The notes: generated from the sequence alone by a model not told the origin. A stretch of 64,000 nt of DNA from Sphingorhabdus sp. (GCF_041916035.1 NZ_JAYSAI010000001.1); one strand, 5' to 3'. Shown: positions 1-737, counted from the stretch's first letter. Program-made: numbers and translations.

Positions 1-710
1 ACTTTCCGCTTCGCGGTCATATCTGCTGCCCATCATGCGGCAATCCTCTGACAGCAAATTACAGCAAGGGCAGGCAGGGTGCGGCCTATCCCTATTACCT
101 CTGCCGCCAGCGCGCCTGCGACCTTCGCGGCAAGTCGTATGCACGGGAGAAAGTGGAAGGCGCATTTGAAGCCCTTCTTCGTTCCGTCACTCCGGCGAAA
201 GAGCTGGTCGAGCTGGCCGCTGCTGCATTCCGAAATCACTGGAACAAGCAGGCGATGAATGCCGATCAATCGCGCAAGGCGATTGAGAAGGAACTCGCTG
301 AAATCGAGCGCAAGGTGAAGCAGTTGCTTGACCGGATCGTCGAGGCTGAAAGCCCGACGGTGATCAGCGCATACGAGAATCGTATCGCGGAATTGGAAAG
401 CACGAAGCTGCTTTTGAAGGATAAAATGGCTCGCGCAGCGCAACCAAAGCGGGACTTTGACGAAAGCTTTCGAAACGCCTTGGCGTTTCTCGCAAGCCCT
501 TGGAATCTTTGGAAGAATGGATCACTTGCGGAGAAGAAGATGGCCCTCAGGCTCACCTTTCCGAAGCATTTGGTCTATGACCCAAAAGGAGCCGTTCGAA
601 ACACCGAATTGTCCTTTCCATTCAAGATGTTATTCGACTTGAACAACCCAAAAATGGAAATGGCGCACCCGACAGGATTCGAACCTGTGGCCCCCAGATT
701 AGGAATCTGA
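1..710. mobile_element. Boundary of an integrated element (genomic island/prophage/ICE) adjacent to the 3' end of tRNA-Arg
   Basis: An integrase gene abuts and overlaps a tRNA 3' end, and core genes resume immediately after the tRNA. The other att end is not visible in this window. Confidence 0.7.
3..710 (+). CDS. Large serine recombinase/integrase, C-terminal part (zinc ribbon + coiled coil); 5' end lies outside the window
   Basis: The frame is open from base 3: FPLRGHICCPSCGNPLTANYSKGRQGAAYPYYLCRQRAC matches the LRG..C..CG...YY.C zinc ribbon of large serine recombinases, followed by a coiled coil (RKAIEKELAEIERKVKQLL). The stop TGA at 708-710 lies inside the tRNA antisense strand. Confidence 0.88.
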   Translation, partial: FPLRGHICCPSCGNPLTANYSKGRQGAAYPYYLCRQRACDLRGKSYAREKVEGAFEALLRSVTPAKELVELAAAAFRNHWNKQAMNADQSRKAIEKELAEIERKVKQLLDRIVEAESPTVISAYENRIAELESTKLLLKDKMARAAQPKRDFDESFRNALAFLASPWNLWKNGSLAEKKMALRLTFPKHLVYDPKGAVRNTELSFPFKMLFDLNNPKMEMAHPTGFEPVAPRLGI

Positions 711-737
711 TGCTCTATCCTGCTGAGCTACGGGTGC
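661..737 (-). tRNA. tRNA-Arg (anticodon CCT)
   Basis: Reverse complement is GCACCCGTAGCTCAGCAGGATAGAGCATCAGATTCCTAATCTGGGGGCCACAGGTTCGAATCCTGTCGGGTGCGCCA: acceptor stem GCACCCG/CGGGTGC, anticodon loop TTCCTAA, T-loop GTTCGAATC, encoded CCA. Confidence 0.97.

Follow-up and report, generated by a model that had tools for sequence, protein, structure and literature searches.

Reviews and the Islander paper (2015) treat serine integrases as not known to use tRNA genes, and Durrant et al., in surveying these enzymes on a large scale, never mention tRNA. In Dehalococcoides, the gene of the recombinase DsiB lies at ssrA and spans attL, and its authors considered that the enzyme may be fully functional only on the circle (McMurdie et al. 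2011; PMC3146451). In the filamentous phage phiRSM, a serine recombinase uses an attP that corresponds to the 3'-terminal 13 nt of a tRNA-Ser gene (Askora 2011; PMC4471427). An attP located inside the integrase coding sequence has been described for IntP of the Myxococcus phage Mx8, in which integration yields a recombinant gene that has acquired a new 3' end and whose product stays active, with changed properties (Tojo 1996; Magrini 1999; PMC6070905). In the SSV-type 'suicidal' integrases of archaea, the recombination site also lies inside the ORF and integration splits the gene (PMC7253208).

The stretch of DNA analyzed here (the window) comprises 64,000 nucleotides, bases 258-64257 of contig C1, of a draft Sphingorhabdus sp. 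genome of 33 contigs and 2.61 Mb. ARAGORN identified tRNA-Arg(CCT) on the minus strand at 661-737 as the sole tRNA in the window, and frame 3..710 of the plus strand, already open at the window start, meets no stop ahead of this tRNA. In accordance with the original prediction, the frame has no stop of its own and terminates inside the anticodon arm of the tRNA, at TGA 708-710, with the C-terminal reading ...NNPKMEMAHPTGFEPVAPRLGI. The TGG that is the antisense of CCA (661-663) supplies bases 2-3 of the ATG codon at 660-662 and base 1 of the next codon. Upstream, the frame extends to base 1 of contig C1, with a total of 321 codons (P0001), and the contig start cuts the large serine recombinase gene so that only its 3' portion remains. 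The Recombinase domain (PF07508) was detected at C1:56-220, just upstream of the window, with 32.3 bits against a cut-off of 21.1, and the zinc-ribbon domain (PF13408) was detected in the fragment with 31.3 bits against a cut-off of 25.3. We found a full-length relative of 547 aa (P0002), 95% identical to the window integrase over the shared part, which carries the Resolvase (PF00239), Recombinase and Zn_ribbon domains and whose ...IYCRVSS... motif was aligned to solved catalytic domains. The predicted class of the enzyme, a large serine integrase, was thereby supported, but its completeness was not, as the contig edge cuts the gene and no Resolvase domain (PF00239), hence no catalytic domain, was seen in the whole assembly. 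No overlap of the contig C1 end with any other contig of the assembly was found. The integrase is therefore incomplete here for assembly reasons, or worse.

We regard positions 3-737 as very probably the attL junction formed when an integrative mobilizable element entered the 3' end of tRNA-Arg(CCT), an insertion that split the integrase gene. In this assignment, which is drawn from sequence comparison, positions 3..660 (plus strand) would be element DNA, namely the 3' part of the recombinase gene, the last ~30 nt of which (about 631-660, plus strand) would constitute the A-rich P' arm of the attachment site, ...CCCAAAAATGGAAA. The core of the att site, TGGCGCACCC, is assigned to 661..670 from the set of sites in this genome and corresponds, in antisense, to tRNA positions 76-67. 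The tRNA itself (661..737, minus strand), which is intact and has G73 as the discriminator, would be the host target (B arm), and its T-loop TTCGAA lies at 678..683, that is, core positions 18-23 of the B arm. The junction codon and the putatively host-encoded read-through tail, MAHPTGFEPVAPRLGI, occupy 660..710 on the plus strand up to and including the TGA. Beyond the tRNA, a DUF1178 gene (PF06676; 773..1255, minus strand) forms the host flank 5' of the tRNA, and its synteny in relatives indicates that it marks conserved chromosomal DNA.

A BLAST search of 600-760 against the genome yielded one strong match, at the other end of C1, outside the window. At this second copy, tRNA-Arg(CCG) occupies C1:68954-69030 and is adjoined by an integrase in inverted orientation. 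The integrase shows 95% identity over 764 nt, has lost its 5' half, and has a frame that traverses the entire tRNA-Arg(CCG). A duplicate of 640-700 had been expected to mark the other end of the element; it was found only as this integrase remnant. The tRNA-Arg(CCG) duplicate was rejected as an att repeat, representing instead a second junction with an inverted, 5'-truncated integrase. The two tRNAs differ by compensatory changes in the acceptor pair 7:66 and in the T-stem, and these match their own 5' halves, indicating that each 3' half belongs to its own tRNA. As a separate observation, the 68-kb core segment of C1 has inverted integrase copies at both sides, and in C1:68954-69992, 4.7 kb past the window end, the contig breaks off within an unrelated ORF that matched no family.

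To place the tRNA itself, we compared the locus with those of relatives. tRNA-Arg(CCT) is present with the same 5' flank in all 19 relatives searched, and no integrase lies beside it in 17 of them, the exceptions being one full family member and one short remnant; these empty sites agree with the proposal that the tRNA is the target of the integrase. The antisense 3' end reads TGGTGC (A73) in 18 of the 19 relatives, as compared with TGGCGC (G73) in this genome. Similarity was lost 6-10 nt into the tRNA in three independent element pairs: S. terrae NBRC 15098 (G031) and the empty relative G055 showed a clean split of the host flank with a 10-nt core, and the pairs L091/L092 and L065/L047 showed breaks 6-8 nt into the tRNA. 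tRNA genes are occasionally found as passengers on mobile elements, and the 3' parts of the two tRNA-Arg genes beside the two integrase copies are alike, as would be expected if the tRNA were cargo of the element and not a chromosomal target. However, relatives without the integrase keep the same tRNA and 5' flank, the compensatory changes fit the 5' half of each tRNA, and the likeness between the element copies ends within the last 10 nt of the tRNA. The cargo explanation is thus contradicted by the empty sites, and we attach almost no probability to it.

The overlap with a tRNA extends to related integrases. A convergent tRNA covers the integrase 3' end in 18 of 24 related loci (37-99% identity), the tRNAs hit being those for Arg (CCT, CCG, TCT, ACG), Met, Ser, Thr and Leu, with tRNA-Ala added by relatives of the same genus; the codon phase (xTG-Gxx over CCA) is common to 18 of 21 junctions. 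A protein search gave 1133 matches, the best 120 of which were inspected for their C-termini. Among these 120 homologues, 112 terminate, in one fixed phase, in ...M-A/V-x-P-x-G-F-E-P..., which is encoded antisense to CCA, acceptor stem and T-loop, and show an invariant P-F-K-x-L motif at -14 to -10 residues from the junction, without indels. Distant representatives numbered 1316 at E<=1e-30, and in a distant set of 118 full-length representatives with <=50% mutual identity, tRNA-antisense tails in this fixed phase were present in at least 74. Integrases at least 90% identical to that of the window were found at all four tRNA-Arg isoacceptor genes, and the read-through tails of relatives vary from 5 to 80 residues, as dictated by the tRNA hit. 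Within the genus the family has a patchy distribution, with members in 7 of the 81 genomes sampled, and no close relative of the integrase was found in the plasmid and phage collections searched. The phase, spacing and motif shared across homologues place the overlap far beyond chance, and read-through into the tRNA is a trait of this alphaproteobacterial family and no accident.

These comparisons also bear on two other explanations. A decayed pseudogene with an accidental read-through would be in keeping with the contig start that cuts the gene, the absence of the catalytic domain from the assembly, and the second copy, which is plainly a 5'-truncated remnant. The same phase and spacing nevertheless recur in the 112 of 120 homologues at many different tRNAs, and the 321 visible codons are intact, with 95% identity to the full-length relative; at the family level this explanation is contradicted, and we consider it extremely improbable. 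The second explanation, also raised in the original prediction, is that convergent transcription of the integrase gives rise to an antisense RNA regulating the rare-codon tRNA-Arg(CCT). The geometry alone speaks for it. The same integrase type, however, occupies four tRNA-Arg isoacceptor genes, and relatives have it at tRNAs for Met, Ser, Thr, Leu and Ala, so that no link to the rare codon is left. No support for an antisense RNA against the tRNA was present within the sequence, and we judge such regulation very unlikely.

Several other arrangements were observed at the loci of relatives. At G011:C1:2172430-2172760 (L111), three tandem 81-nt units, each composed of a 55-nt hairpin-containing spacer and a 26-nt copy of the tRNA 3' end, lie between a tRNA-Arg and a family integrase, and the integrase frame traverses all three units to reach 624 aa; a single unit of the 81-nt type is found at L004:2985-3145. 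At L014:4916-6456 (= G125:C1) and L069, a P4-like tyrosine-integrase island sits in the anticodon loop of tRNA-Arg(CCG), with the displaced 3' tRNA fragment left on the serine integrase, so that two integrase classes are stacked at one tRNA. In L025:1-126, from a Pseudobdellovibrionaceae MAG, the last 45 nt of the integrase are identical to those of the window and are joined to tRNA-Arg(ACG). This genome is assigned to another phylum, and the finding reflects either inter-phylum transfer or a binning error.

We found a common far-end sequence, in which the core TGG(C/T)GCACCT is followed by (A/T)GGAGGAGAAAGTTCGAAAC..., at four places: in G125, 25.75 kb from the attL core; in G009, 26.4 kb from the attL core; and in the present genome at C6:264109 (plus strand) and at C2:1593 (minus strand), the last belonging to the second copy, at tRNA-Arg(CCG). 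The DNA outside the G009 site is homologous to the 3' flank of the empty tRNA-Arg(CCG) in G129, and therefore the G009 far-end site is an attR. The core reads TGGCGCACCC in the window attL and TGGTGCACCT in the attR at C6:264109. When the halves of these two are swapped, one product, attB, is TGGTGCACCC, exactly how the tRNA natively ends in L028, the closest relative, and the other, attP, is TGGCGCACCT, identical to the core at the other three attR sites. From this consistent attB/attP/attL/attR set, we infer that the exchange takes place within GCACC, at 665-669, corresponding to core positions 5-9 and tRNA positions 68-72. The four sites bracket the exchange to 5 nt, the shared core being 9-10 nt, and TGGC (CCA plus discriminator) is supplied by the element, changing A73 to G73. 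The attR on C6 is paired with the window attL by a single T/C difference at core position 4 and not by contig continuity.

The crossover had been proposed to lie within the overlap, and the four-site set accordingly places the exchange in its first 5-9 bases. The expected att duplication at the far end was recovered in part: the far ends exist (C6:264109 and C2:1593), but the repeat is only 9-10 nt long and is followed by a conserved arm. With the far end found, the view of the locus as a mere relic was relaxed for the first copy, and it stands for the second. Two candidate features were withdrawn. One was a free-form tail 'RPA*' for S. terrae, as the S. terrae attR lacks the P arm found at the four other sites; the other was a palindromic GC exchange point, which rested partly on the S. 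terrae att set. The S. terrae attR (G031:C24:~1642; L057) consists of host flank and a 10-nt core with no conserved P arm, and this island end may be decayed or part of another element; a scan of metagenome contigs for the S. terrae P arm gave 0 matches. Metagenome contigs likewise gave 0 matches to the exact junction pattern of the excised circle (attP), and no free-form protein of this clade was present among the top 120 homologues. Searches for attR by synteny did not find it in G035, in which the relatives were too distant, or in G011, in which the tandem array was in the way, and gave no match in G109 via the G125 flank. The tRNA-less junctions L047/P0015 and L091/P0107 may be free forms or secondary sites, and their tails do not match the conserved 92-codon tail described below.

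The attachment sites share a further feature. In the B arms of both tRNAs, TTCGAA begins at core position 18; in each of the four P arms it begins at position 23, a 5-bp offset obtained by comparing one side of each site; the other arms (P' in the last integrase codons and B' in the variable host flank) showed A-rich similarity only. The P arm thus looks like a mimic of the tRNA T-arm in which TTCGAA is moved 5 bp outward, and the enzyme probably recognizes the acceptor/T-arm of tRNA-Arg genes. The offset agrees with the structural model now current for serine integrases, in which, as Rutherford, Van Duyne and colleagues reportedly proposed in 2013, the zinc-ribbon-domain motif of attP is displaced outward by 5 bp relative to that of attB.

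The flanks of the two sites were also examined. The 3' flank of tRNA-Arg(CCT) in relatives (G012 and G007; a lipoprotein gene and a terminator) is joined elsewhere in this genome (C29:~215400 and C6:263787-264109), and the DNA joined to it is that flanking tRNA-Thr(TGT) in G125. tRNA-Thr(TGT) and tRNA-Arg(CCT) seem to face each other across the element, and the rearrangement is consistent with an inversion whose two breakpoints lie at tRNA 3' ends. The 3' end of tRNA-Thr(TGT) recurs as a ~26-nt direct repeat ~95 nt downstream of the tRNA (C6:263863-263975), apparently a footprint left by another element that has since been lost. Contig C24 ends exactly at the last base of tRNA-Arg(TCT) (C24:148867-148943), and tRNA genes likewise form the ends of many other contigs of the assembly, suggesting that variable islands are located there.

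The conserved sequence at the far ends has coding potential in the phase of the integrase. Read from the core, this phase is open for 92 codons at all four attR sites, and most other frames have stops. The tail reads MAHLGGESSKLLFDTLAQWNHALSQTSIAG..., a variable linker, and ...LDPNVVGIDLSARRPQRPTYRGPKKR...MEVGHG, and its stop overlaps the start of a NikA/MobC-like gene, with a MobA/VirD2 relaxase next. The reconstructed circle junction, ...AAATGGAAA-TGGCGCACCT-AGGAGGAG..., is predicted to be open across, so that the circle product would end in ...KMEMAH followed by 89 residues, as compared with ...KMEMAH followed by the 13 tRNA-encoded residues PTGFEPVAPRLGI on the chromosome. Rewriting of the integrase C-terminus by integration, the central idea of the original prediction, is therefore seen in the reconstructed attP, which gives MAH + 89 in place of MAH + 13 residues; the C-terminus of the circular form differs from that of the integrated form and is conserved. 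At the level of sequence, the swap of the C-terminus is thus shown.

The functional meaning of this swap is less certain. The tail possibly matters for direction or regulation, with the full-length protein integrating and the chromosomal, tail-less form excising with a helper, and we put this forward tentatively. A more specific version, in which the swap is a built-in device for both directionality and timing, seems to us somewhat doubtful; the full-length protein would integrate, with translation running into the mobC-relaxase operon, and the tail-less form together with an ORF of ~94 aa would excise. Another possible explanation, on which we also place limited weight, is that the split is real but functionally neutral. 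The integrase would then be complete up to the junction, and the 92-codon frame would be a separate small gene, or a DNA site plus a mobC leader, sharing the phase by chance. In line with neutrality, conservation of the integrase falls after P-F-K-x-L, 10 residues before the junction, and the putative free forms L091 and L047 carry unrelated tails. Furthermore, the tail ORF begins with ATG or GTG at each of the four attR sites, and could for this reason be a separate small gene; it matched no family in Pfam and occurs as an orphan ORF in 30 database clusters, mostly of exactly 92 aa. On the other hand, the phase is common to all four elements, and an alignment of 16 of the 30 clusters showed that the conserved part begins precisely with the core instead of at a start codon or ribosome-binding site further upstream, where the sequence is unrelated host flank. 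Distant full-length relatives also bear a similar L.GES...L..T..W...L tail within the integrase: the first 20-27 tail residues align in register from the junction codon with the C-termini of the distant full-length members P0248 and P0187, although the single-pair E-values are weak (0.03-0.06), and several other distant representatives without a tRNA-type tail have a similar V-D/E...W...W ending. Differences between the G009 copy and the others are commonest at codon position 3 and rarest at position 2, a pattern seen in the first 28 codons and in codons 55-92, the linker being roughly even. The first ~10 tail codons coincide with the P arm, and their conservation may in part act at the DNA level.

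The gene content was assessed for the type of element involved. Beside attR in this genome are the NikA/MobC-like gene and the MobA/VirD2 relaxase gene, and across the family a conserved ORF of ~94-111 aa lies upstream of the integrase, with a TraG/VirD4 coupling protein further upstream. The ~94-aa ORF, which matched no known family and contains no recombinase domain, is a candidate for the putative helper, located just upstream of the integrase. In the 26.4-kb element of G009, the order from attR to attL is tail ORF, MobA/VirD2 relaxase, ArdC, Type ISP restriction-modification enzyme, helicase-nuclease, GGDEF protein, coupling protein, small ORF and integrase, and no VirB4-like gene was found among its 10 largest ORFs. 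The presence of a relaxase and an integrase of its own, with no VirB4-type gene among the ORFs scanned, points to an integrative mobilizable element with defence cargo. The cargo region of G009 (L117:5689-10590) encodes a 1633-aa Type ISP enzyme, a 1116-aa helicase-nuclease (AAA_11/12 + DUF559) and ArdC, a load resembling a defence island. The present genome contains two element copies, of which only both ends of each are assembled, and the coupling protein and small ORF were not found in this assembly.

Following the reading of the locus as attL, we propose the following model. The element would be ordered as P arm, 92-codon tail ORF, NikA/MobC-like gene, MobA/VirD2 relaxase, cargo, TraG/VirD4 coupling protein, ~94-aa ORF, integrase and P' arm, with the attP core inside the last codons of the integrase gene. 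Its recombination partner would be the acceptor-stem end of the tRNA (GCACC, tRNA 68-72). Integration would keep the tRNA whole, the discriminator and CCA supplied by the element being able to rewrite A73 to G73, and would fuse the integrase frame to the tRNA antisense, so that MAH is followed by 13 arbitrary residues. The 89 codons with which the gene naturally ends would stay at the other end of the element, at C6:264109 for the first copy and at C2:1593 for the copy at tRNA-Arg(CCG). The full protein of ~600 aa, with its stop overlapping the mobC start, would be encoded by the excised circle only. The chromosomal form would retain the recognized domains, as judged from the full-length relative, but would have lost the natural tail, and would be the sole form available for excision. 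After circularization, translation or transcription would run on into mobC and the relaxase.

If this model holds, a large alphaproteobacterial family of serine integrases does target tRNA genes, and an exchange within the last 9 bases would leave the tRNA undamaged. The presence of one enzyme type at all four tRNA-Arg isoacceptor genes could drive rearrangements among them. The natural attB/attP pair with its apparent 5-bp T-arm shift would provide a test case for the model of attP/attB discrimination, and a conserved tail encoded only on the circle would mean two natural enzyme forms, making the control of directionality directly testable. For databases, the tRNA-antisense 'C-termini' would be junction artefacts, and the 92-aa 'hypothetical proteins' at far ends would be missing integrase tails.

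The described system with the same gene-spans-attL layout is DsiB, a large serine recombinase of ~540 aa at an island edge. In every case the dsiB-type gene overlaps attL, located at the 3' end of a tRNA-like gene, and its frame meets no stop within the island. The likeness is confined to this layout; neither a conserved free-form tail nor a P-arm geometry has been described for DsiB. Its target is a tmRNA, whereas tRNAs are used here; it has a 20-bp direct repeat and inserts in the T-loop, in contrast to the 9-10 nt core and acceptor positions 68-72 of the present sites; and a small recombinase, DsiA, is co-encoded there, with none seen here. DsiB islands are also without relaxase or coupling protein, both of which are present in the alphaproteobacterial family. 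The family accordingly lacks the marks of the DsiB type (ssrA, 20-bp repeat, DsiA). In a limited literature search, we found no description of this alphaproteobacterial family or of a P arm that mimics the T-arm with a 5-bp shift, nor of the use of all four tRNA-Arg isoacceptor genes or a conserved split-off tail. Mx8 IntP differs in being a tyrosine recombinase of a phage, with about 100 residues replaced. The SSV integrases are likewise tyrosine recombinases and undergo an inactivating split in mid-gene, whereas the recognized domains here precede the junction, as seen in the full-length relative. The phiRSM enzyme is of the small resolvase/invertase type, without Recombinase or zinc-ribbon domains, and its attP lies between genes. 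With phiC31, Bxb1, A118/LI and TP901-1, the present family shares the Resolvase, Recombinase and zinc-ribbon domains (in the full-length relative), a very short att identity, and an attP half-site motif 5 bp further out. Those canonical large serine integrases use mostly protein-coding or intergenic targets and have attP outside the integrase ORF; in the family described here, in contrast, the target appears to be the 3' end of a tRNA, the integrase gene spans the reconstructed attP, and the P arm seems to imitate the T-arm of the tRNA.
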